Of a DNA stretch of 64,000 nt, positions 2,850 through 24,577 are shown one piece after another; positions within the stretch are counted from its first letter, which is position 1, and each line of letters opens with the position of its first letter. Below the pieces are notes generated by a model. It saw only the letters and a program-made list of their open reading frames with translations. It did no database searches and had not been told where the DNA came from. Location: positions 864,001 to 928,000 of the forward strand of contig CAVTBU010000006.1 of the NCBI GenBank assembly GCA_963733035.1, read 5' to 3'. The position numbers were made by a program, and so were the translations under genes. The DNA is from Pirellulales bacterium (GTDB lineage: Bacteria > Planctomycetota > Planctomycetia > Pirellulales > PALSA-1355).

Positions 2850-4127
2850 TCAGGCGAACAACTCGCTAATCACCTTTCCGCCGTTAGCGATTTTCATGGG
2901 GCGGCCGTTCTTGCTGGTGAAAGTGGTCTCCAGCGAGATGCCCAGTGCTTGGCAGACTGTAGCCATAACATCCTGGGAGCTATAAGGCTCGCTATCAATG
3001 TCGGTGCCATCGGCAGTCGTGCGGCCAACAGCGATGCCACCTTTCATGCCGGCGCCGCCGAGCACAACACTCCAACTCCGCGCCCAATGGTCGCGGCCGG
3101 CCGTGGCGTTGATGCGAGGAGTGCGGCCGAACTCGCCCATCCAGATGATGGCCGTGTCGGCGAGCAAGCCGCGCTCGTCAAGATCGCTCACCAGCGAGCT
3201 CATCGCCTTGTCCATCTCGGGCAGCTTGTTGTTCGACAGCGTGGTGAAGTTGTTTTGATGTGTATCCCACCCGCCGAGATCGACTTCGACGAACGCCACT
3301 CCTTGTTCGACCAACCGGCGGGCCATCAGGCAACCGCGACCAAAGCCTGTATTGCCGTAGCGCTCGCGGGTCGTTTCGTCCTCCTTGTTGACTTTGAAGG
3401 CGTCCATCTGCTTGCTTGTCATCAGGCCAACGGTCTTCTCCAGAATGCCCGCGTGGTCGACAGCCAATTGTCCGCGGTTCTGTTGAATGAAGTTCTTTTC
3501 GAGCGAAGCGAGCATTTGCATTCGCTCGCCGAGCCGATAGTCGTCGACCGACATTTTCAGATTTCGCACGTTACCGTTTGAATTGACAACGAACGGGGCA
3601 TAAGTCATTCCCAGAAAACCGGGGCCTACACTGCCGCCCCCGACCGCCACGAACGGAGGAATATCGAGATTCAATTCCTTCGTCTGATCGGCCAGCATGT
3701 GACTGATCACCGAGCCGTAGCCCGGGTGTTCGATGTTCGGGTTGGGTACATAGCCGGTATGCATGTAGTAGCGCCCACGATTGTGGTCGGCTTCGCGAGT
3801 GCTCATCGAACGGACGATTGACAGGTGATGCATCTGCTTGGCGGTGAGCGGTAGATGCTCGCAAATCTGTTCGCCGCCCGAAGTGCCGATGGGCTGAAAC
3901 ATGCCGCCGGTCGGAGCGCCGGGTTTGAGATCCCAGATATCGATCGTTGCGGGCCCACCGCCCATCCAGAGCATGATGGCTGATTTGTGTCTTTTCTTCA
4001 GATCAGCGGCGTGCGCCCGCAGGGTCGAAGTGAAGGCCATCGCTGGCAGCGCCAAGGCTGAGGCACCGGCCAAGTGTTCGAGAAAATGGCGGCGAGTCAT
4101 TCCGCGAGGCGTGGGCTGATTCATCAT
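2850..4127 (-). CDS. DUF1501 domain-containing protein (Tat signal)
   Basis: TRRHFL twin-arginine motif; LWMGGGPATIDIWDLKP, GWDTH, GEFGRTPRIN, GRDHW. Confidence 0.93.
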   Translation of the reverse strand: MMNQPTPRGMTRRHFLEHLAGASALALPAMAFTSTLRAHAADLKKRHKSAIMLWMGGGPATIDIWDLKPGAPTGGMFQPIGTSGGEQICEHLPLTAKQMHHLSIVRSMSTREADHNRGRYYMHTGYVPNPNIEHPGYGSVISHMLADQTKELNLDIPPFVAVGGGSVGPGFLGMTYAPFVVNSNGNVRNLKMSVDDYRLGERMQMLASLEKNFIQQNRGQLAVDHAGILEKTVGLMTSKQMDAFKVNKEDETTRERYGNTGFGRGCLMARRLVEQGVAFVEVDLGGWDTHQNNFTTLSNNKLPEMDKAMSSLVSDLDERGLLADTAIIWMGEFGRTPRINATAGRDHWARSWSVVLGGAGMKGGIAVGRTTADGTDIDSEPYSSQDVMATVCQALGISLETTFTSKNGRPMKIANGGKVISELFA

Positions 4128-4202
4128 GGCCAATTCTCAAGTGAAGGTTGTGGGGTGTGCTAGCTGAGATTGCGTGGACAAGAGGCGGGTGATCTTTGCA
4201 GG

Positions 4203-5930
4203 TCAGTGATTGAAGATGAATTCGTTGCTATTGAGTAAAGCCCACCACACGTCTTGCATTGCCGCCGCGGAATCACCTTTGCGAAGTCGCAATAGATCGT
4301 TGGCTGCTGAAATTTCTCTGCCGACCGGTCGACGAGCCAGAGCCGCCAGATACAAGTGGTTGATTTTGGCCGCATTACTCATTTTCGCATCATTGGCTAT
4401 GCGATACAAGAAACTGCCTTTTTCGATGCTGGTCGCCTTGTTGATCAAATCACCGTTCATCATCATCAGAGCTTGAGGAATGGTACCGTTGAAAGTGGTC
4501 GTTTCCGCGTTGTCGTCCGTGCCAAATGCCAGCGTGAATTGGTTCAACCATTCGCGTTTCGTTGCTTCACGCTGTTCGTAGCTGGTGGCTGTGCGGTCGG
4601 CTTCGGTGGCCGCCAACAGCGACTCATAGAGCTCCTCGGCTCGCATTTGACGAAGGTAAAAGTGACTGAACGACGGACGCTGGCCAAGTGCCGGATCGTC
4701 GTCCTTGTTGCGCGGTGTCATCTTGCTCGACAGCCCGTACGGTTCGCTGAGCAGGATCCACATCATCAATTGCTTCAAGTCGTAGCTGTGTAACTTGAAT
4801 TCATTGGACAACGCCTCGAGCAACTCGGGGTGGCTCGGCGGATTGTGGGGGCCCATGTCGTCGATTGGCTTAGTGAAACCATAACCCAGAAAATGGCTCC
4901 ACATTCGATTGATGATTGCAGGCGCGAGATACTCGGAGTTGACGATCAGGTTGGCGAGTTCCGTGCGACGGTCGACATCGGCCACGTAGCCACTGTTACT
5001 TTCGAGCGTTTGCCCATCGACGAATACCGGGTAGGCAGCCTTTGACAGCCCATTGCGCAATTCATAAAACAGGACGGCTTCCTCGGGCCGGTTGTTCTCG
5101 CCCGCGAAGTCCTGATTGACCAGCTCGATCGATTCAATGTCGCGGCGATTTTCAAAGCGGCGCAGCGCTCTGGTCTGACGAAAGAAGGCGTTCATTTCCC
5201 AGAACTGGTTCTGTTTCCAGTCGTTGAACGGGTGATTGTGGCACTGCGTGCATTGGATTTGCAGTCCGAGAAAGATTTGGGCCGTTTTGGCCGTTGCTTG
5301 GACAGCGTTGTCCTCAAGGTTGCCGGCCATGAAGTTCACGAAACCATTGAAGTCTTTCTCGCCCGGTTTGCTGACCCCTTTGGCGCAGATCAGCTCGAAC
5401 ACGAGACGATCGTAGGTCATGTTGCGCTGGAGCGCGCGGCGGAGCGATTGAGCCAACCCTTCACGATTCACCAGAGAGCGGCGATCGGTGCCGCCAGACC
5501 TGCCGACTAGGATGTTCGTCCAGAGCGTCGTCCAGTTGCTCGCGTACTCCTCGATGTATTCATCGCCGAGCAGCCGGCTAACCAGCCGTAGTTTGCGCTC
5601 GGCGGCCGGCTCCGACAAAAACCGTTCCAGCTCGTCGACCTTGGGGACGCGCCCCAGCACGTCGAGATAGACCCGACGGCACCACTCGCCATCGGTGGCG
5701 TCGGGCGAGGGTGTGAGTTTATTGGCCTCCCAATGTGCACGGATCAGGCGATCAATCAGCGCAACCTGGGGGAAGGGGGGAGTACCAGCCGGAGATCCGG
5801 CGGCCACGCCTGGACGCGGCAGCACCGCGACCGTCAGCAGCAAGGCGACGGCCGCGGCCCGCGCCGGCCCAAACATGTGGCAAGTGGAGCACCCTCGAAA
5901 CAACGCAAATAGTCCCTGCGTCAGTGCCAT
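4203..5930 (-). CDS. DUF1549/DUF1553 (PSD) domain protein
   Basis: WCRRVYLDVLGRVP, LGLQIQCTQCHNHPF (CxxCH), PSHPELLEAL, QALMMMNG, WALLNSNEFIFNH; lies upstream of DUF1501 as is typical. Confidence 0.93.
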   Translation of the reverse strand: MALTQGLFALFRGCSTCHMFGPARAAAVALLLTVAVLPRPGVAAGSPAGTPPFPQVALIDRLIRAHWEANKLTPSPDATDGEWCRRVYLDVLGRVPKVDELERFLSEPAAERKLRLVSRLLGDEYIEEYASNWTTLWTNILVGRSGGTDRRSLVNREGLAQSLRRALQRNMTYDRLVFELICAKGVSKPGEKDFNGFVNFMAGNLEDNAVQATAKTAQIFLGLQIQCTQCHNHPFNDWKQNQFWEMNAFFRQTRALRRFENRRDIESIELVNQDFAGENNRPEEAVLFYELRNGLSKAAYPVFVDGQTLESNSGYVADVDRRTELANLIVNSEYLAPAIINRMWSHFLGYGFTKPIDDMGPHNPPSHPELLEALSNEFKLHSYDLKQLMMWILLSEPYGLSSKMTPRNKDDDPALGQRPSFSHFYLRQMRAEELYESLLAATEADRTATSYEQREATKREWLNQFTLAFGTDDNAETTTFNGTIPQALMMMNGDLINKATSIEKGSFLYRIANDAKMSNAAKINHLYLAALARRPVGREISAANDLLRLRKGDSAAAMQDVWWALLNSNEFIFNH

Positions 5931-6213
5931 TGGAAGGCCAAATTGTACGGCGAAAGCATTCGCCCAAACATCGCCCGCGACAAGACTCCTCCACCGGGCG
6001 CGACTGGGCTAAAGCCAAGTGGCAAGGGGGGGCTGATCGACATCCTGCCGGCCAAATCTGAACCCCAAGCTTTTCGGCCTACAATTCGGCGGCCGCAGGG
6101 CGATTTATTGCAGGAAATTTTTTTCGCGGAATTTTTTCGAGACTAAAGCAGGGACGTCTTTGCTATGTATCGTTTTAATGCATGTGTATCATTTTGCTGT
6201 ATTGAAATGCAAC

Positions 6214-6258: not shown

Positions 6259-6462
6259 TTGTGAAGCACGAAAACGCGCCTCCTCTTCGGACTCACGACA
6301 CTGGCCTCGCTGTTCCTGCAGGCCGTAAGTCCTTATTTCCTTTGCGCTTTCGCAGTTTGTTGCCATACCTCTTCTAGTAGCCGGCCCCAAAACTTGCTCT
6401 TCTCTGTTTCGGCCCCGACAGCCTCGTAAGGCATGACCTCTTCTGCTCCGCAGGGACTGAAT

Positions 6463-6479
6463 AGCAAGCAGCGTGCCAA
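6463..6479 (-). promoter_or_regulatory. Sigma-54 (-24/-12) promoter
   Basis: Minus strand TTGGCACGCTGCTTGCT exactly matches TGGCACG-N4-TTGC(A/T), in an intergenic region. Confidence 0.8.
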
Positions 6480-6536
6480 ACTCGATCGCGCTGCGATCGG
6501 GGGCACCAGCTGCGGATTTCTTTCGCGGGCAGTCGT

Positions 6537-11087: not shown

Positions 11088-14000
11088 TCAGTGCGATGAT
11101 TGGCCAACCGTCCAGAAATGCATTGTGCCAAACGTACCATGTAGGGCGGCGCGGCTCCCTGTCGCAAGCAATTCATTGCCGGCAAAAGTGACCGCCGTCA
11201 GCGAGCCGAGGTCCTGCGCCAGCGTAAACAATTCTTCTCGCGTGGCTAAATTCCAGAGCCGGACACACCCATCGCTGCTCACCGTGGCAAGGCAACGCTG
11301 GTCGGACGAAAATGCGACGCCGGTGACCTCCAACTTGTGGCCGGCTAGCGAGGCAATCTTCCTACCCTTTTTCCATTCCCAGATTTGCGCGATCCGGTTG
11401 TTTCCTCCCACAGCCAAAAGCATGCCGTCAGGCGAGAAGGCGAGACAACGCATTTCATCCGTACAAACGTCGCCGAACGTTTTCAGGTGATTGCCCTGCG
11501 CGTCCCAGATCTTGAATCGCGCTGCGTCGCCGATGGTCGCTAAGATAGGCTCACGCGGAGCATACGCCAGGGCCATGAGGCGATCTTCGTAGGCCTGGAC
11601 ATGCATGAGTGGCTCGAACTCGTGTACGTTATACGTCACCAATTCACCCCGCGTACCGCCAGCGACAAGTTTTTTTCCGTCGGGCGAAAAAGCCAAGGCA
11701 GCGACGGCTGGAGACTCGCTGCGCCATACGGCAATTCGTTGTCTGCTGCGCGCATCCCAGACCTTGACATTTGCGTCATCGAATTGGCTCGCGGCTACGA
11801 AATTACCATCAGGCGAAATGGCCAGACTTTGCACGCGCCTGGTGTCATGGAGTTCATCCAGCCTTTCGGCATCTCCAGACGAAGGAGTCGGCACGGACCG
11901 CTGGGCCGACTGAGCGTTTGACTCATCCTTGAGGCAGATGGTCCAAATGGGCTTCCTGGAACGGACATCCAAAATGGCGATTTCGCCCAGCGCATTGCCG
12001 CGGGCCAGCGTTTGCCTGTCGCGAGTCAAGTCCAGTGCGGTTACTGCGCTACGATCATCGATGGTTTCCGGGCGAGTTGGCAACGGCAGTTTCCAGAGCT
12101 TGACGGTGCGATCTGCGCTCGCGGTAGCCAGGTATTCTCCATCGCGAGAAAACGCCAATGACCATACGCGCGTTCCATGGCCCCGCAGTTGTCGCAGGAA
12201 GGTGTCATCGCTCGAGCGGTATAGCTTGACAGTGCCGTCTTTGGCTGCGACGGCGTAATACTCCCCCGCGGGATGGAATTCTACGGCCTGTACCCAATCG
12301 TAGGTTCGTACGGCCTGACGGCGAACCTTGGTCGAAATCTCGTCGATCGGGCCCCCTCTGGAACCCCACAGATTTACGAACCGCTGCGAACATTGCCCGG
12401 TCAGTAGCAGATCACCATTGTGAGAAAGAGAAAGGCAGTTTACCCCTCCATCGTGCCGGAGTTGGCTGCGCTCTGTTCCGGTGGTAACGTCCCAGAGACG
12501 CACAGTCTTGTCGTCGCTGGCGGTGGCCAGAATCTTCCCGTCAGACGAAAACTGCAAGGCATGCACGGTGCCGGAGTGGCCGACGAATCTGGTCACGAGT
12601 TCACCAGTTTCGGCTTTGAAGAGAGCGACCTTCCCATTCAGTCCGCAACACGCGAGCGTATCACCAACCGGAGAAAACGCGACACCGACGGCGCGAGCGT
12701 CGTGCAGTTTCGCACGACTCACAAGGCGGCCATCGGCGGTGCTCCAGACGCGTATCGTGCCGTCGTCGCCGGCTGTGCCAAGCAGGTCTCCCGTCCGAGA
12801 GAATGCCACGCAGTTGACGTCCCCCACGTGCCCGTTAAACACGAACCGGCACTTTCCGTTTGCAACGTCCCAGATTCGCGCAGTTTGATCCTGGCTTGAC
12901 GTGGCCAGCAGGCGTCCATCGGGTGAGAAACGGACGCAGAATACCTCTCCGGTATGGCCGCGGATCGCGCGCTCGTGTTCATTCAGTTCGTTCCAAAGAT
13001 ATTGCCAGCCAAACGAGCGCTGTCCGGCTTCGCCCGTCAGGGATATCGCACGGCTCAAATGAACTCTTGCCTGGTCGATTTGGTCGGTGCTGATCGCTTG
13101 GTCGGCCAGTCTGACGTTGGCGGCGTACAGGTATTGCTCGGTGGTGAACATTTGTAGTTCGACCAGGTCGAGGGCCGCGCGCAACTGACTTGAGTACCAC
13201 CAACCGCCGCCCATGAGCAGGACGCTCGTGGCGAGGATAACGCTCAGCAGTGCCGCGACCGCCGGGCGCCGCCGGCACCATTTTGCGAGCTTTTCTGCGC
13301 CGATTGTCGGTCGAGCCCAGGTGGATTCACCGTTGAGAAACCGCTGCAAATCGTCGGCCAGATGTTCCGCCGTAGGGTATCGATTCGCCGGTTTTTGTTC
13401 AAGGCATTTGAAGGCTATCGCTTCGATATCGCGGGAGACCCTTGGGCGAAAACGCCGCAATGGCGGAACTTCTCCGCGCGCCACCAGCTGTAGTGTCCGC
13501 ACATCCGTTTGACCGCGGAACGGCGGCCGCCCAGCAATCAATTCAAACAGCAATACGCCCAGCGCGTATACGTCGGTCGTGGGGCCAATCTCCTCCAACT
13601 GACCGTTGGCTTGTTCCGGTGCCATGTATGCCGGCGTGCCAACCAGCGTTCCATTGTGCGTCTGGTCCTCACCCAACTCGGCCACCTTGGCCAGTCCGAA
13701 ATCGGTCAAGAGCGGTGTGAGATTGGGTTCCGCACCGCTCCCCTCATCTGGCAACGTCACGCTTCCGTCGATTTGCAGCAGGACATTGCTGGGCTTGATG
13801 TCTCGATGCAGTACGCCGCGCCGATGCGCGTGTTCGACGCCCCGCGCGAGCGACGCCACGATGGTCGCAGCCTGGCGTTCGGGAACTGGTTCCGTGCGCG
13901 CCTCGAGCCATTGTGCCAGGTTCGGCCCGCTGCACAGCGCCGAAGCGATATAGCAAATCGGCCCATCCTCGCCGACCTCGTGGATTGGAATCAGATTCGG

Positions 14001-14393
14001 ATGCGTCAGAAGTCCGGCAGCTTTGGCTTCGCGTAAAAACCGAGAACGCGCCGATCGACTGGAAATGACCTCAGGCCGAGGTATCTTTACGGCTACCTGG
14101 CGGCCGACTTGCGAATCGATCGCGGCGAAAACCACTCCAAAACCGCCGCGACCGACCTCGCGGATAATCTCGAAACGCCCGATCCGCCGGGGAGGCCGAC
14201 CGACGGCATCCTTGTTTCGCCGAAACTGCTCCAAGAGCCGTAGGCACTCTTCAAGTTGTTTGAGTTCCGCCGCTGACGAATCATCAAGCGTCGAATCGAA
14301 CTTGATTTCCGCGGCATCGCTGGCGATCACGTCGTGAAGGGCTTCGAGCCAATGCGAATCGTCGGGGTTGGCACCGTGCTCAGGATTGATCAT
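11088..14393 (-). CDS. Hanks-type Ser/Thr protein kinase with TM helix and WD40 repeats
   Basis: GRGGFG, VAVK, HRDIKPSN, DFG, GTPAYMAPE; TM segment; many GH...FSPDG...WD repeats. Overlaps the end of the sigma gene. Confidence 0.95.
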   Translation of the reverse strand: MINPEHGANPDDSHWLEALHDVIASDAAEIKFDSTLDDSSAAELKQLEECLRLLEQFRRNKDAVGRPPRRIGRFEIIREVGRGGFGVVFAAIDSQVGRQVAVKIPRPEVISSRSARSRFLREAKAAGLLTHPNLIPIHEVGEDGPICYIASALCSGPNLAQWLEARTEPVPERQAATIVASLARGVEHAHRRGVLHRDIKPSNVLLQIDGSVTLPDEGSGAEPNLTPLLTDFGLAKVAELGEDQTHNGTLVGTPAYMAPEQANGQLEEIGPTTDVYALGVLLFELIAGRPPFRGQTDVRTLQLVARGEVPPLRRFRPRVSRDIEAIAFKCLEQKPANRYPTAEHLADDLQRFLNGESTWARPTIGAEKLAKWCRRRPAVAALLSVILATSVLLMGGGWWYSSQLRAALDLVELQMFTTEQYLYAANVRLADQAISTDQIDQARVHLSRAISLTGEAGQRSFGWQYLWNELNEHERAIRGHTGEVFCVRFSPDGRLLATSSQDQTARIWDVANGKCRFVFNGHVGDVNCVAFSRTGDLLGTAGDDGTIRVWSTADGRLVSRAKLHDARAVGVAFSPVGDTLACCGLNGKVALFKAETGELVTRFVGHSGTVHALQFSSDGKILATASDDKTVRLWDVTTGTERSQLRHDGGVNCLSLSHNGDLLLTGQCSQRFVNLWGSRGGPIDEISTKVRRQAVRTYDWVQAVEFHPAGEYYAVAAKDGTVKLYRSSDDTFLRQLRGHGTRVWSLAFSRDGEYLATASADRTVKLWKLPLPTRPETIDDRSAVTALDLTRDRQTLARGNALGEIAILDVRSRKPIWTICLKDESNAQSAQRSVPTPSSGDAERLDELHDTRRVQSLAISPDGNFVAASQFDDANVKVWDARSRQRIAVWRSESPAVAALAFSPDGKKLVAGGTRGELVTYNVHEFEPLMHVQAYEDRLMALAYAPREPILATIGDAARFKIWDAQGNHLKTFGDVCTDEMRCLAFSPDGMLLAVGGNNRIAQIWEWKKGRKIASLAGHKLEVTGVAFSSDQRCLATVSSDGCVRLWNLATREELFTLAQDLGSLTAVTFAGNELLATGSRAALHGTFGTMHFWTVGQSSH

Positions 14394-15038
14394 GTCTCGA
14401 CCCCAGGTCAGCCGTTAGACGCTGAAGTGCCCGCTTCCACAACTTTCGTGCCGCGTCCTGGCTCACGTCGATCAGTTCACCGATCTCGATAAACGACAGA
14501 TATTCGATATTGCGCAGGCGAATAATCTCCGCGTAGTGACTCGGCAATTCGTCGATTGCCGCGAGAAGTCGTTCGAGGTTCTCGTTCTCCATGGCGCAAC
14601 CGCTGGGCGAGGTTTCCTCGCTTACCAGGTACTGACCAGAATTGTCTTGCGACCCCGTCGGCGCAATCGGGACCTCGCATGCGACGTTTCGCTTGATGGT
14701 GTCGCGAAACGCGCGAGTTGAATCGCGAATGTTGTTCAGGAGCACCCTTCGGAGCCAGGCGCGCAGTTCCTGTTCGTCGTGACCCCGAAACATATCAAAC
14801 TTCTCCCAAGCTTCCGCTAGGCTCTGTTGAACCAAGTCGCTCGGCGCGACTTTGGGACGGATGTCGTCGGGAACTTTTTGATTGGCAATCATTTGGAGAT
14901 AGTTGCGACATCTCTCAAGCAAAGTGCTGCGCGCCCGCGCGAGTCGGCGCGGGCTTGCAAGATCTGCTGCCCGAAATGCAGTTTCCCCGCCGCGGAATCT
15001 TCTCGCCGCTGCAGGTCCGAATCCGTCGAACGGTACAT
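14380..15038 (-). CDS. Planctomycete-type ECF sigma-70 factor; apparent frameshift near 14935
   Basis: LLERCRNYL...SDLVQQS...LRAWLRRVLLNN...SPS...DAARKLWKRAL. The N-terminus (MYRSTD...QQILQARADSR) is in an adjacent frame and joins if the G run at 14934-14936 is one base longer. Confidence 0.88.
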
Positions 15039-20483: not shown

Positions 20484-21017
20484 CTAGCGCCGGGGCGGGG
20501 TGGAGTTGTCGGCCACCTTCTGCCGGGTCTCGGTGAAATCGAGCGCGGTGATTTGACCGGCGGTGAGTTGGACCGTCTTCTCTTCGCTCACCGGCTTGTC
20601 GTCGCGCATATACTCGGCCCGAACCTTGTACGAATAGGTGGTGCCGGGCTGCAGGTCGCGCGAGATGTATTGCCGAACCGGGCCGGTGCTGGTGGTGGGA
20701 CGATCATTGACGAAGATTTTCGCCTCGGCCGGCACATCGACCGTGAGCAAGGCGTTGTTCGTGGCGGTCGACGTGGTGGCTCGCGATGGCGAACCGGCAT
20801 AGTAGCCCATTCCCGGTCCCCAGTACCCCGGATAACCCCAGCCGCCGTAGCCCCAGCCACCGTAGTAACCAAGACCATATCCGCAGCCACCCCAGCCGCA
20901 ACCGCCCCAACCACAGCCACCCCAGCCGCAGTGGCGATGACCAAAAGCGCTGGCCTCACTGGTGAATGAACCGAGAGCGACAAGTACGACTGCAATCTTC
21001 AGTGCTGTTTTCAACAT
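20484..21017 (-). CDS. TIGR03000 domain-containing protein
   Basis: Signal peptide, GWGGC/Gly-Tyr repeats, then LTVDVPAEAKIFVND...T.STG.VRQY.S..L.PG..Y.Y.VRAE. Confidence 0.9.
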   Translation of the reverse strand: MLKTALKIAVVLVALGSFTSEASAFGHRHCGWGGCGWGGCGWGGCGYGLGYYGGWGYGGWGYPGYWGPGMGYYAGSPSRATTSTATNNALLTVDVPAEAKIFVNDRPTTSTGPVRQYISRDLQPGTTYSYKVRAEYMRDDKPVSEEKTVQLTAGQITALDFTETRQKVADNSTPPRR

Positions 21018-21338
21018 GGTTTTTGCTCCCCAGGAGATACTTCCGATGACGTCTGACGGCACCTTGCGTCGCACACCTTGGTGCCGAGGCAAGAGTACCA
21101 TACCAAGTCTAGGTTCCAAGTAGTACCAGCGCCGGCGAGTTCGGGACTTGCCGCGCCCGGGTTTTAATGGGTTTTCAACCGCATCTTAGGCGAATCAAAC
21201 TCCTGCGTGCGGCTCGGCGGCAAGCGCGAAGCGGCGCAGGCCGACTTCCAATACGTTGCGCTGGCCGGCCGTCGTCTTGCCGGGCTGAGAAAACGATCAA
21301 ACGCGATATCGCGAGCAACCGTCGTCCTCACGCTCAAA

Positions 21339-22963: not shown

Positions 22964-23242
22964 CTACTTCATCGATGGAAACGGCCGATTATACAGGTGG
23001 TCCTGGCGATCGACAATTGGCCCGCGTGTGTGGGTCGCGCCCTGGGACTGAGGTGGTCGGCGGCGTGCCTTCTGCTTTGCGATATGCACGAGGAACGATG
23101 CCCAGGCAGTATAGAATGCAAGCGCGATTGCGCAACCGAGAATCCACCACAACTTACGACCTACGGCTCGCCTCGATTTCGGAACTTCTCCCGGCGATTG
23201 GAATGGGTTTTGTCCGTAGCTGATAGCGGCATTCTTTCGCAC
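22964..23242 (-). CDS. Putative small single-pass membrane protein with NPFQSP motif
   Basis: NPFQSP followed by basic residues and TM helix LWWILGCAIALAFYTAWASFLV; start uncertain. Confidence 0.45.
   Translation of the reverse strand: MRKNAAISYGQNPFQSPGEVPKSRRAVGRKLWWILGCAIALAFYTAWASFLVHIAKQKARRRPPQSQGATHTRGPIVDRQDHLYNRPFPSMK
22988..23016 (-). promoter_or_regulatory. Sigma-70-type promoter for gap
   Basis: TTGTCG-N17-TATAAT about 85 bp upstream of the gap start. Confidence 0.6.
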
Positions 23243-23263
23243 ACGAAAAATGCCCGATCAGCG

Positions 23264-23773
23264 TCACGTATCTGGTGGGATGACTTCCGGAAAAACGATA
23301 TTGTACGGCGTCGGATCAACGTAGAAAATTCGGTAGCTCTCCAGGGCGGACAATAGCCGCTGAACCTCGGGCCAATTATCTCCAAACCTTTCTCGGCCGC
23401 GTTCGTCATTGTCACGTTCGGTTTCCGGAGAATAGTCGGGCTCAGTGAACCTTACTTTTGCAAAGTCGATGATGTACGGAGGGTTCTGCATCAGGTCCAT
23501 TTCGACCACCTGCAGCTCGTCGTCAAATCCGTGCATTTCAGGAATCCAGAAGCCCGCGATCTGCTGGGTGATGCCCCACCTTTTCAATTCTTGGTACGTG
23601 AATCGCTCATTCTGGTAGCCGCGCCAGGCCGAAAATACTTTGATGGCTGTGTCGCGTTCCGTGGACCAGACCGCACCATCCGTGCCATCGCCAAGGAAAG
23701 CTTTGATGTTTACGTGGGGTCGATGTAGGCTAAGATACGCGTCAAGTCGTTCTCGATATTGGGCGTCAAGCAT
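23264..23773 (-). CDS. Minimal protein-kinase-like protein with permuted motif order
   Basis: LGDGTDGAVW, AIK45, E56, IP, VVEM, IIDFA (D103), IFYVDPTPYNI (D153, N158). Confidence 0.75.
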   Translation of the reverse strand: MLDAQYRERLDAYLSLHRPHVNIKAFLGDGTDGAVWSTERDTAIKVFSAWRGYQNERFTYQELKRWGITQQIAGFWIPEMHGFDDELQVVEMDLMQNPPYIIDFAKVRFTEPDYSPETERDNDERGRERFGDNWPEVQRLLSALESYRIFYVDPTPYNIVFPEVIPPDT

Positions 23774-24040
23774 ATGGGAATTCACCACAAAGATGGATAT
23801 TCGGCCTCGGTCGAGGGCTTCTTTGTCGTCGGCGAAGCACGTTTTCGTTTGGCTAAGACAAATGGCTGCAGTTTTGTATTGGCTGAATTCTGCGAACTTC
23901 CGCCGGGATCCAGCGGCGAGCTTTTGGTCATTGTCGACGGCAAGGCCAGCGTTCGCTGCGTCAGGCTACCCGAGGGCGTGGCGCTCGGCCAGCGCGTGGT
24001 TAATTACGAGGTTCCGCAGGACGAGTCCGTGCCGTTCTAG
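23774..24040 (+). CDS. Small beta-rich hypothetical protein, divergent partner of the kinase-like gene
   Basis: 88-aa ORF with alternating hydrophobic strands, PPG and VDG turns, and C-terminal DESVPF; followed by a strong terminator. Confidence 0.7.
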   Translation: MGIHHKDGYSASVEGFFVVGEARFRLAKTNGCSFVLAEFCELPPGSSGELLVIVDGKASVRCVRLPEGVALGQRVVNYEVPQDESVPF

Positions 24041-24114: not shown

Positions 24115-24164
24115 AAACACAAAAGCCCAGCCCGCGCGAGAGCGCGGGCTGGGCTTTTGTGTTT
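24115..24164. terminator. Strong bidirectional intrinsic terminator
   Basis: 23-bp perfect inverted repeat AAACACAAAAGCCCAGCCCGCGC - GAGA - GCGCGGGCTGGGCTTTTGTGTTT. Confidence 0.85.
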
Positions 24165-24304
24165 CGCTTGGTTTTGGCTCATTCGTGAACGGGTGCCAGC
24201 AGCGGTCGACATCTGCGGTTGCGGGGCGGGTATGCTACAATGCCACGGTTGCGGCGATACACGGGTAGGAAATTGGTTTTTCTTTGACAACACAAGGGCG
24301 GCGC

Positions 24305-24577
24305 ATGAGCGGCGAGCACGACAAACTGCGACAGGCACTCAACGATCTTCAAGACCACCTGGCGGAATTGCGCGAGGTCGATCCGAACGTGGCTGCCCAG
24401 CTGGATTCGACAATCGCCGAAGCCAACAGTGTGTTGGGCTCGGAAGCGAACGCCGGGGAGCATCACACCGTGGCCGAACAGTTCAACGAGGCGCTGTTGC
24501 ACTATGAGGCCTCTCACCCGACGCTGGCCGGCAACCTGCGCAGCGTGATCGACGCGCTGGGACAGATTGGAATTTGA
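24305..24577 (+). CDS. DUF4404 family protein
   Basis: ...YEASHPTLAGNLRSVIDALGQIGI C-terminal signature. Confidence 0.88.
   Translation: MSGEHDKLRQALNDLQDHLAELREVDPNVAAQLDSTIAEANSVLGSEANAGEHHTVAEQFNEALLHYEASHPTLAGNLRSVIDALGQIGI

Follow-up and report, generated by a model that had tools for sequence, protein, structure and literature searches.

Can a protein of the kinase fold carry its DFG-type motif ahead of its catalytic loop, and would such a protein still be an enzyme? The question is raised by a small gene in a 64,000-nucleotide stretch of the genome of a Pirellulales bacterium (GenBank assembly GCA_963733035.1, contig CAVTBU010000006.1, positions 864,001 to 928,000). This whole stretch is called the window below. 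The gene occupies 23264..23773 on the minus strand and encodes a minimal kinase-like protein (P0001) of 169 amino acids (aa), followed by a TGA stop. A sequence-only reading of the window had singled it out as a very small, topologically permuted kinase that keeps all catalytic residues and might represent an uncharacterised family, such as a kinase toxin. The explanation that we prefer, with a probability of about 0.6, is that this permuted mini-kinase would be an active ATP-dependent phosphotransferase, and that the product of an abutting gene, modelled as a cover over its nucleotide cleft, would serve as its dedicated regulator, as a phospho-acceptor (at S10 or Y9), or as both.

The Gene and Its Motifs

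On the minus strand, positions 23264-23773 translate as an uninterrupted open reading frame (ORF) of 169 codons from ATG to TGA; the plus-strand reading is ridden with stops. An in-frame GTG at 23788 would allow a product of 174 aa, and homologues use the ATG at 23773 as their start. Translation of this strand placed every motif that had been claimed for the ORF at its stated residue.

The Gly-rich loop G28-D-G30-T-D-G33 (23675..23692, minus strand, as are all motifs of the protein) aligns with the GRGGFG of a Hanks-type kinase encoded elsewhere in the window and with the Gly loops of BMPR2, TGFBR1, and ACVR1. The β3 lysine, K45 of A43-I-K45 (23639..23641), aligns with the AVK lysine of canonical kinases. 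The helix-C glutamate is E56 of YQNERF (23606..23608), and it falls within a helix that spans residues 50-65 of the structural model. The stretch V89-V-E-M92 (23498..23509) would form the end of β5 and the hinge. A strand is modelled at 89-93, A43 covaries with L94, and residues 92-97 touch the partner protein in a model of the complex. The stretch I101-I-D103-F-A105 (23459..23473) is a DFG-like strand with a putative metal-binding aspartate that lies ahead of the catalytic loop, as conservation, model strands, and covariation suggest. It is followed by a long helix at residues 116-145 (23339..23428). The C-terminal half of this modelled helix resembles helix E and aligns with the helix preceding the HRD motif in the Hanks kinase of the window. 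The catalytic loop D153-P-T-P-Y-N158 (23300..23317, within L144...I159) aligns with HRDIKPSN of that kinase and with SLKPQN of Escherichia coli YrbL. The tail after N158 consists of 11 residues, IVFPEVIPPDT, and contains neither D-F-G nor D-x-G, so the earlier statement that no DFG follows the loop is borne out by the translation.

Conservation of the Catalytic Residues

A word-indexed search returned 96 homologous proteins at E ≤0.01 among 121 candidates, nearly all of them 160-175 aa long. Those that carry a name are annotated as 'hypothetical protein' from metagenome-assembled genomes (MAGs) of Pirellulales. An exhaustive HMMER scan of 1.84 billion representatives of clusters formed at 50% identity matched 662 of them at E ≤1e-3, 297 at ≤1e-10, and 5 at ≤1e-30. 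Two alignments were built, one of 35 close homologues and one of 87 distant members with 30-50% identity. Invariant in the first are L27, G28, G30, T31, D32, G33, K45, E56, E91, I102, D103, F104, A105, K106, D153, and P154, and N158 is kept in at least 90% of its sequences. No substitution of G30, G33, K45, D103, F104, or D153 is seen among the 87 distant members. Of the other kinase-motif positions, G28, E56, E91, P99, and N158 are retained in 90% or more of these sequences. Judged from these alignments, the conserved set includes all the canonical kinase catalytic residues, in permuted order. The claim that all catalytic residues are kept thus holds for K45, D103, and D153 without exception and for E56 and N158 in at least 90% of the distant members, and D103, on whose conservation the sequence-only reading had staked itself, does not vary in either alignment.

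The simplest alternative is that the gene is a truncated remnant or a mis-called fragment of an ordinary kinase gene that has lost its DFG motif and C-lobe. Its short length is the one feature that favors this explanation. In every one of the 35 close homologues, however, the stop falls 3-16 residues past N-I-V-F, after a tail of variable sequence. Length is also kept in the best 150 of the 662 cluster representatives, which range from 68 to 259 aa, and the longer ones that were inspected owe their length to extra N-terminal sequence or to frameshifted tails, and one of them to a read-through; none has a downstream DFG. The homologues are thus not longer versions with a normal motif order, which the earlier reading had considered as a way in which it might fail. 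A length-restricted search for forms of 427-2000 aa found none, although this is weak evidence. The structural model described below is confident end to end. Truncation or pseudogene formation is excluded for the window gene, with next to no probability left to it, because lengths and end point are conserved, longer forms are not found, and the catalytic set is invariant or nearly so in its permuted order. As a separate observation, a kinase-like ORF on another contig (P0123) reads through into DUF4404-like sequence; DUF4404 itself was found at 0 of 35 related loci.

A Small Predicted Kinase Fold

Sub-threshold Pfam matches among the 87 distant members were to FTA2 (8 members), Pkinase (4), APH (3), ABC1 (2), and Kinase-PolyVal (1), with scattered single matches to unrelated families. 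The best of these scores was that of one member (P0114) on Pkinase (PF00069), residues 19-153 on profile positions 3-129. A search of PDB sequences with the window protein at E ≤10 gave nothing other than one chance match. The family profile gave 33 weak matches with E-values of 0.08-1.5, and all 33 are Hanks kinases matched over the Gly loop, AxK, and helix C.

The sequence-only reading had proposed structure prediction followed by Foldseek, and these yielded a confident model and kinase-fold matches. AlphaFold2 with 35 sequences gave a predicted local distance difference test score (pLDDT) of 93.3 and a predicted template modelling score (pTM) of 0.85 for the kinase-like protein. The model obtained without an alignment had a pLDDT of 38.8 and was discarded. 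The modelled N-lobe has a helix at 4-15, and its strands and helix C (50-65) follow in the order expected of a kinase. Foldseek against the PDB gave 20 matches at E ≤1e-3; all the matches listed are kinase-fold proteins, with TM-scores (TMq) of at most 0.49. The top match was APH(2'')-IVa (E 1.7e-4, TMq 0.48), and Rio2 (1zar, E 3.8e-4), MTR kinase, and RIOK1 were also found. Raf, Src, and BMPR2 lie just above E 1e-3.

Of the features of the PKL (protein kinase-like) superfamily, the protein has the Gly loop, the β3 lysine, the helix-C glutamate, and the D-x-x-x-x-N loop preceded by a helix-E-like helix. It lacks a metal-binding aspartate on the strand after the catalytic loop and has instead an invariant strand-D-F-A/G 50 residues upstream. 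Helix F is also missing: the model ends after a strand at 159-160, and its sole C-lobe helix is that at 116-145. Membership of the Hanks family (PF00069) does not follow either, with scores below the gathering score and neither a DFG after the loop, nor APE, nor helices F-I. On the evidence of the model, the protein is a member of the PKL superfamily by fold; by the sequence models of the families concerned it is not Pkinase, RIO, APH, or YrbL. The claim of a very small kinase fold is supported at 169 aa, with model, Foldseek matches, and profile alignments in agreement.

Motif Order and the Position of D103

The order of the motifs can be read from profile alignments. The 87-member profile aligned by hhalign with the domain of the Hanks kinase of the window at a probability of 90% (E 1.6e-6), family residues 21-162 on template residues 15-149. 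The alignment pairs G-I-Y-Y-x-D-x-x-P-g-N-I of the family with G-V-L-H-R-D-I-K-P-S-N-V of the template and stops at the end of the family; P-L-L-T-D-F-G of the template (168-174) lies 19 residues further on. An alignment with E. coli YrbL (E 6.2e-4, probability 28%) likewise reaches only up to the catalytic loop of YrbL, where the order is normal, S-L-K-P-Q-N and then V-V-C-D-N-I-G. By these alignments D153 and N158 are the catalytic-loop residues, and the family has no linear counterpart of the DFG region. In its stead, the invariant D103-F104-[A/G], preceded by a hydrophobic strand, comes after the hinge and before the helix that leads into the catalytic loop.

The model is consistent with a rearranged core. 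Assignment with DSSP gives strands at 100-101 and 107-108 that flank D103, the 30-residue helix 116-145, a strand at 150-151 just ahead of D153, and one at 159-160 just past N158, each of these strands two residues long. In canonical kinases β7 pairs with β8 and β6 with β9. The modelled strands 100-101, 107-108, 150-151, and 159-160 fit β8, β9, β6, and β7, respectively.

Covariation was examined by mean-field direct-coupling analysis (DCA) of 174 family sequences (~160 effective) trimmed to residues 23-161, and the top 50 pairs were considered; a run without trimming was set aside because artefacts of terminal gaps dominated it. Six of the 50 pairs join residues 98-111 with 147-161, against ~1.2 expected by chance according to our own arithmetic. 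The segment around D103 is linked to the strand before D153 and its surroundings (A105-Y151, K106-Y151, K106-P154, and T110, F109, and E111 with R148), to helix 116-145 (I101-L140, I101-L144), to helix C (Y100-N55, Y100-R57), and to the Gly loop (T31-K106). N-lobe contacts of known type, A43-L94 and L27-A43, are among the top 50. In the complex model Y100 touches the same partner residue as hinge residues 93-95, which fits a strand that starts beside the hinge, as β8 does.

We consider it probable that D103 acts as the metal-binding aspartate. The proposal of a topologically permuted order, with which the sequence-only reading began, gains support from alignments that end at the catalytic loop, from the strand pattern of the model, and from weak covariation, and we infer from the model that the C-lobe core is circularly permuted. 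A literature search in titles and abstracts found no natural PKL protein with a DFG element ahead of the catalytic loop. The portion of Scheeff and Bourne (2005; PMC1261164) on which we draw treats the PKL catalytic core as a nearly immutable cassette, changes to which should be deleterious, and the word 'permut' does not occur in that portion.

The Partner Gene and Its Junction

Directly beside the kinase-like gene, at 23774..24040 on the plus strand, lies a gene for a β-rich protein of 88 aa (plus stop) that belongs to no known family. It was sought by tblastn in 35 related loci taken from species-representative genomes and was found in 32, always divergent and directly adjacent. The negative loci are one at a contig edge (L024), one in which the kinase gene is 5'-truncated (L033), and one of 35% identity (L034), where a divergent 83-aa ORF of similar character has no tblastn match. 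Six other neighbors in the window, namely GAPDH, panB, the DUF4404 protein, and three further ORFs, were found by tblastn at 0 of the 35 loci. When all ORFs of 70 aa or more in the window and the loci (1732 in total) were clustered, the widely common families were the kinase-like protein, the partner, and their antisense shadows; the next most common families occurred in 4 loci each. The two genes are a self-contained cassette that occurs in unrelated genomic contexts in Pirellulales. Their NCBI locus tags are consecutive in three records, and one MAG (DATKRK01) has two cassette copies on different contigs (L011 and L012).

The partner family has 188 members at E ≤1e-3, typically of 84 aa and all 'hypothetical'. 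Across 31 partners M1, G2, G8, Y9, S10, A27, and D55 are invariant, and A11, V13, and K28 nearly so. The partner has no match in Pfam, in PADLOC, or in the PDB, the latter also searched with a profile, and no helix-turn-helix (HTH) or other DNA-binding domain was recognised in it with Pfam. By language-model features the Atlas places it among unnamed Planctomycetota clusters; the nearest named cluster is PilZ (0.86), which is a lead only.

In the window the two start codons abut head to head in CATATG (23771..23776). All 33 places that have both genes are arranged head to head. The junction is CCCATG in 27, with the two ATGs overlapping by 2 bases, and CATATG in three (the window, L010, and L017). 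Of the remaining three, one has an overlap of 12 nucleotides (nt; L002), another an overlap of 15 nt (L005), and in the last the kinase gene is degenerate (L035). Since no intergenic DNA is left, promoters would have to lie inside the opposite gene, or the mRNAs would be leaderless. The position of the start codons within the palindrome CATG suggests an overlapping bidirectional promoter or a control circuit of 5'-antisense type. Conservation at four-fold degenerate sites, sought as a sign of embedded promoters, is 0.70-0.76 in kinase codons 11-30 against 0.25-0.53 elsewhere, and 0.50 in partner codons 11-20 against 0.20-0.38. This is a faint rise, 30-90 nt into each gene.

Downstream, 78 nt past the partner stop and between the partner and DUF4404 genes, a consensus scan found a perfect palindromic hairpin with a 20-bp stem and T-rich tails on both strands (24118..24161). 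It is likely a bidirectional terminator. The DUF4404 gene itself lies beyond the partner gene at 24284-24577 on the plus strand (Pfam E 8.7e-17).

A Predicted Complex Over the ATP Cleft

The kinase-like protein (35-row alignment) was folded together with ATP, Mg, and the partner (31-row alignment) in three runs. The interface score ipSAE was 0.88, 0.87, and 0.89 (median 0.88), compared with 0.01 for the best of three controls. This mark is reached by 116 of 157 solved complexes and by 2 of 215 mismatched pairs, a calibration made without user alignments or ride-along ligands. The runs have at least 96% of contacts in common, and the pLDDT of the partner is at least 87.

On the kinase side the modelled interface comprises residues 24-31 (β1 and the start of the Gly loop), 37, 40-42, 70, 76, 78-79, 81, 92-97 (hinge), 100, 155, and 157. 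On the partner side it comprises residues 3, 5, 7-11, 13-15, 25-31, 34-35, 37, 50, 52, 54-55, 57, 59, 61, and 74-75. The conserved partner residues Y9, S10, A11, V13, A27, K28, and D55 all lie inside it. In the model, partner G8-Y9-S10 pack against kinase L27/G28, and partner K28/T29 against the hinge. Y100 is in the interface, and D103 and F104 are not listed there. The model supports binding, with the partner predicted to clamp over the ATP cleft at the Gly loop, hinge, and catalytic loop, about where helix D would lie in an ordinary kinase. We take this position, which spans the opening of the nucleotide cleft and touches catalytic-loop residues, to be that of the substrates and pseudosubstrates of protein kinase A (PKA).

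Such a placement raises the possibility that the two proteins are a dedicated kinase-substrate pair, a small phospho-switch in which the partner is phosphorylated at the invariant S10 or Y9. The invariance of G8-Y9-S10 in 31 partners and its modelled contact with the Gly loop fit this idea, as does the presence of T155 and Y157 of the catalytic loop in the modelled interface; these we presume to correspond to PKA K168 and E170, which contact substrate. The lowest-error contacts, on the other hand, are at the hinge and the start of β1, away from the catalytic base, and constraint on the DNA itself, in the start region common to both genes, may account for part of the invariance of M1-G2 and the codons around it. 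We regard a dedicated kinase-substrate pair as rather unlikely.

The complex also bears on whether the protein is a kinase at all. It could be a pseudokinase or scaffold in which IIDFAK is kept for structure or for partner binding, and which binds nucleotide without transfer or carries out another reaction such as AMPylation. SelO and SidJ are atypical PKL proteins with other reactions of this kind. Helix F and the activation segment are missing in the model, Y100 beside the motif is in the partner interface, and the match of the D103 segment to DFG is statistically insignificant, all of which are in keeping with a pseudokinase. Yet five canonical catalytic positions are jointly under strong purifying selection, which is atypical of pseudokinases, and D-F-[A/G] after a hydrophobic strand is a canonical signature. 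D103 and F104 lie outside the listed interface, and covariation joins 105-106 to the strand before D153 and to T31 of the Gly loop. A pseudokinase or scaffold is an improbable reading of the family.

Proposed Mechanism and Points Against It

Purifying selection acts on all catalytic residues together, and the explanation that needs the fewest assumptions is therefore an active ATP-Mg phosphotransferase. The chain would begin with a normal N-lobe consisting of helix 4-15, β1, the Gly loop, β2, β3 with K45, helix C with E56, β4, β5, and the hinge. No helix D would follow the hinge; the chain would enter directly a strand, D103-F104-A105, and another strand, equivalent to β8-DFG-β9. A long helix would come next, its end serving as helix E, and then β6, the catalytic loop D153...N158, β7, and the end of the chain. 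Helix F and everything beyond it would be absent, and the protein would be reduced to ~165 residues. In chemistry of the PKL type, the ATP phosphates would be held by K45 and E56 and the Mg by D103 and N158, with D153 as catalytic base. The kinase would not work alone, with a β-rich partner of 84-88 aa bound across β1 and the Gly loop, the hinge, T155, and Y157. In its full form, this scheme has the core run from β8-DFG-β9 through helix E to β6-catalytic loop-β7 without helices D and F, the partner bound in the space of the missing C-lobe parts and of the substrate, and both genes fired from a junction of zero length. As a whole we hold it tentatively, at slightly less than even odds.

Several points weigh against an active permuted kinase with a dedicated partner. 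The window protein has no Pfam or NCBIfam match at E ≤10, and the best-scoring family member reached 20.7 bits on Pkinase against a cut-off of 31.7. The Foldseek TM-scores are below 0.5 and mostly driven by the N-lobe; values in this range are expected if the chain aligns sequentially only in part, and they are also a caution. The strand pairing is read from the DSSP string of the model, and the covariation is weak and noisy at ~160 effective sequences. A 24-residue profile around D103 found its best placement exactly on the canonical P-L-L-T-D-F-G, although at E 0.46 and a probability of 0.1% over 7 columns this is not significant. The ipSAE calibration was made under conditions other than ours, as stated above, and divergent transcription is unusual for two subunits that are needed together. 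Catalytic competence is, moreover, not assured, because helix F is absent. The part of Scheeff and Bourne (2005; PMC1261164) used here counts helix F in the universal PKL core as a stabiliser of the catalytic loop.

Gene Decay and a Possible Role in Conflict

Of 34 loci that could be evaluated, 10 have a broken kinase gene (L014, L025-L029, L031-L033, and L035). Three have nonsense codons (TAG/TGA), five have frameshifts, one is 5'-truncated, and one is a remnant of 38 aa; errors of long-read assembly may explain some of the frameshifts. L031 also lacks D103 and a piece of the Gly loop. In L027 a 24-nt tandem duplication (6450-6496) lies inside the catalytic-loop codons and D153 is replaced. 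In L033 the gene is cut at residue 72 (~5956-6000) and adjoins an AT-rich inverted repeat, perhaps the scar of an insertion or deletion. Alterations of the partner gene are seen in three loci (L010, L025, and L027). Where both genes are present, alterations affect 9 kinase and 3 partner genes at a length ratio of ~2:1, and the asymmetry is not significant. Decay in which a toxin is lost before its antitoxin was considered as evidence and was rejected, since 9:3 mirrors gene length. GC content is 0.517 over the kinase-like gene (23200-23800) against 0.58-0.65 on both flanks, which hints at foreign origin or relaxed codon usage.

These observations bear on a functional refinement of the preferred explanation that retains the same fold assignment. 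The cassette may resemble a toxin-antitoxin or conflict system, with the mini-kinase as a growth-arrest or defence effector and the partner as an inhibitor that plugs the ATP cleft. In keeping with this, the two small genes travel together through unrelated contexts and occur twice in one MAG, the family is strongly diversified, with 662 clusters at the 50% identity level, and the complex model lays the partner over the Gly loop, hinge, and catalytic loop. The GC dip, the frequent disruption of the kinase gene, and a note attached to a PADLOC profile, which puts relatives beside CRISPR adaptation genes, point the same way. However, the genes are divergent in all 33 places and do not form a co-directional operon, the partner has no DNA-binding domain recognisable by Pfam, the decay asymmetry lacks significance, and no paralogue of the kinase-like gene occurs within the 64-kb window. 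A search for the CRISPR linkage of the PADLOC note was negative: a CRISPR array is absent from the window and from all 35 loci, and no cas family was detected among 31 window ORFs scanned with Pfam. A role in conflict is a possibility that we think rather unlikely, about on a par with the kinase-substrate pair.

Other Genes of the Window

The window contains further genes of note. The product of 11088-14393 (minus strand) is a Hanks-type Ser/Thr kinase of 1101 aa with fused WD40 propellers (Pkinase, 1.4e-46), and a sigma-70 region-4 protein is encoded directly upstream of this gene and overlapping it (14380-14922, minus strand). At 20484-21119 (minus strand) lies a gene for a secreted-looking protein with Gly/Trp/Cys-rich GWGGC units and no Pfam match; the units are encoded by 15-nt tandem repeats at 20836-20931. 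A gene pair of DUF1501 and PSCyt2/PSD1 (DUF1549/DUF1553) type, which is typical of Planctomycetota, occupies 2850-5930 (minus strand), and a DUF1501-like family occurs in 4 of the related loci.

Comparison With Known Systems

The family has been profiled before. The PADLOC-DB profile PDLC01137, 'ST_Kinase', matches residues 2-161 of the window protein on profile positions 1-162 of 162 (E 2.3e-24, 84.2 bits) and describes the same protein family. Recognition of the protein as kinase-like is not new, because PADLOC already profiles the family under a kinase name. The suggestion of an uncharacterised family stands in that no experimentally characterised family covers the protein, and fails in that a named profile already matches it end to end. 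PDLC01137 is described as a Ser/Thr kinase that neighbors a putative operon for an adaptation module, adjacent to type I-C CRISPR systems in Rhodopirellula, whereas no CRISPR array or cas gene lies near the window copy. The profile consists of a name and a neighborhood note and mentions neither the permuted order nor the partner. Titles and abstracts hold nothing in print on the family or its partner, the supplementary profile list of the CRISPR classification paper being outside that search. What is new here is the conserved head-to-head gene for the 88-aa partner.

Should the permuted arrangement prove real and active, the kinase fold would gain a new minimum size and a new chain connectivity, and engineers of split or permuted kinases would have a natural template. 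The arrangement would also mean that annotation based on motif order misses whole kinase families, here one of 662 clusters with no matching Pfam or NCBIfam model. The partner and the overlap of start codons make a testable two-gene module in Planctomycetota, possibly a conflict or switch system.

Small or atypical kinases that require a tightly bound partner for activity, or are blocked by one, are exemplified by HipA-HipB, OspG with E2~ubiquitin, and HopBF1. HipA and the window protein have no match in sequence or fold, the genes of the window are divergent, and the partner is without an HTH. Hanks kinases (PF00069) are alike in the Gly loop, AxK, helix-C glutamate, helix E, and D-x-x-x-x-N loop, all of which align. 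YrbL (PF10707) and a phage T7-type kinase (PF27024) are the nearest named clusters by language-model features (Atlas 0.94 and 0.93), which are leads only. Both are small bacterial or phage PKL proteins, and the window protein has no Pfam match to PF10707.

The best Foldseek matches, APH(2'')-IVa (9qow/3sgc) and MTR kinase (2olc), are alike in N-lobe architecture. They are, however, small-molecule kinases of ~300 aa with a helical substrate-binding C-lobe and normal motif order, and sub-threshold scores to Pfam APH occur in only 3 of 87 family members. The likeness to kinases of RIO/Bud32 type (Rio2 1zar/1zao, RIOK1 4otp; Foldseek E 3.8e-4 to 1.3e-3) lies in a small PKL fold with no eukaryotic-type activation segment and with an extra N-terminal helix. 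No RIO1 match is seen, since the window protein has none in Pfam at E ≤10. In RIO kinases the catalytic loop precedes the metal-binding aspartate. RIO proteins are 220-290 aa long, whereas in the window family the order would be reversed and the chain would end after β7.

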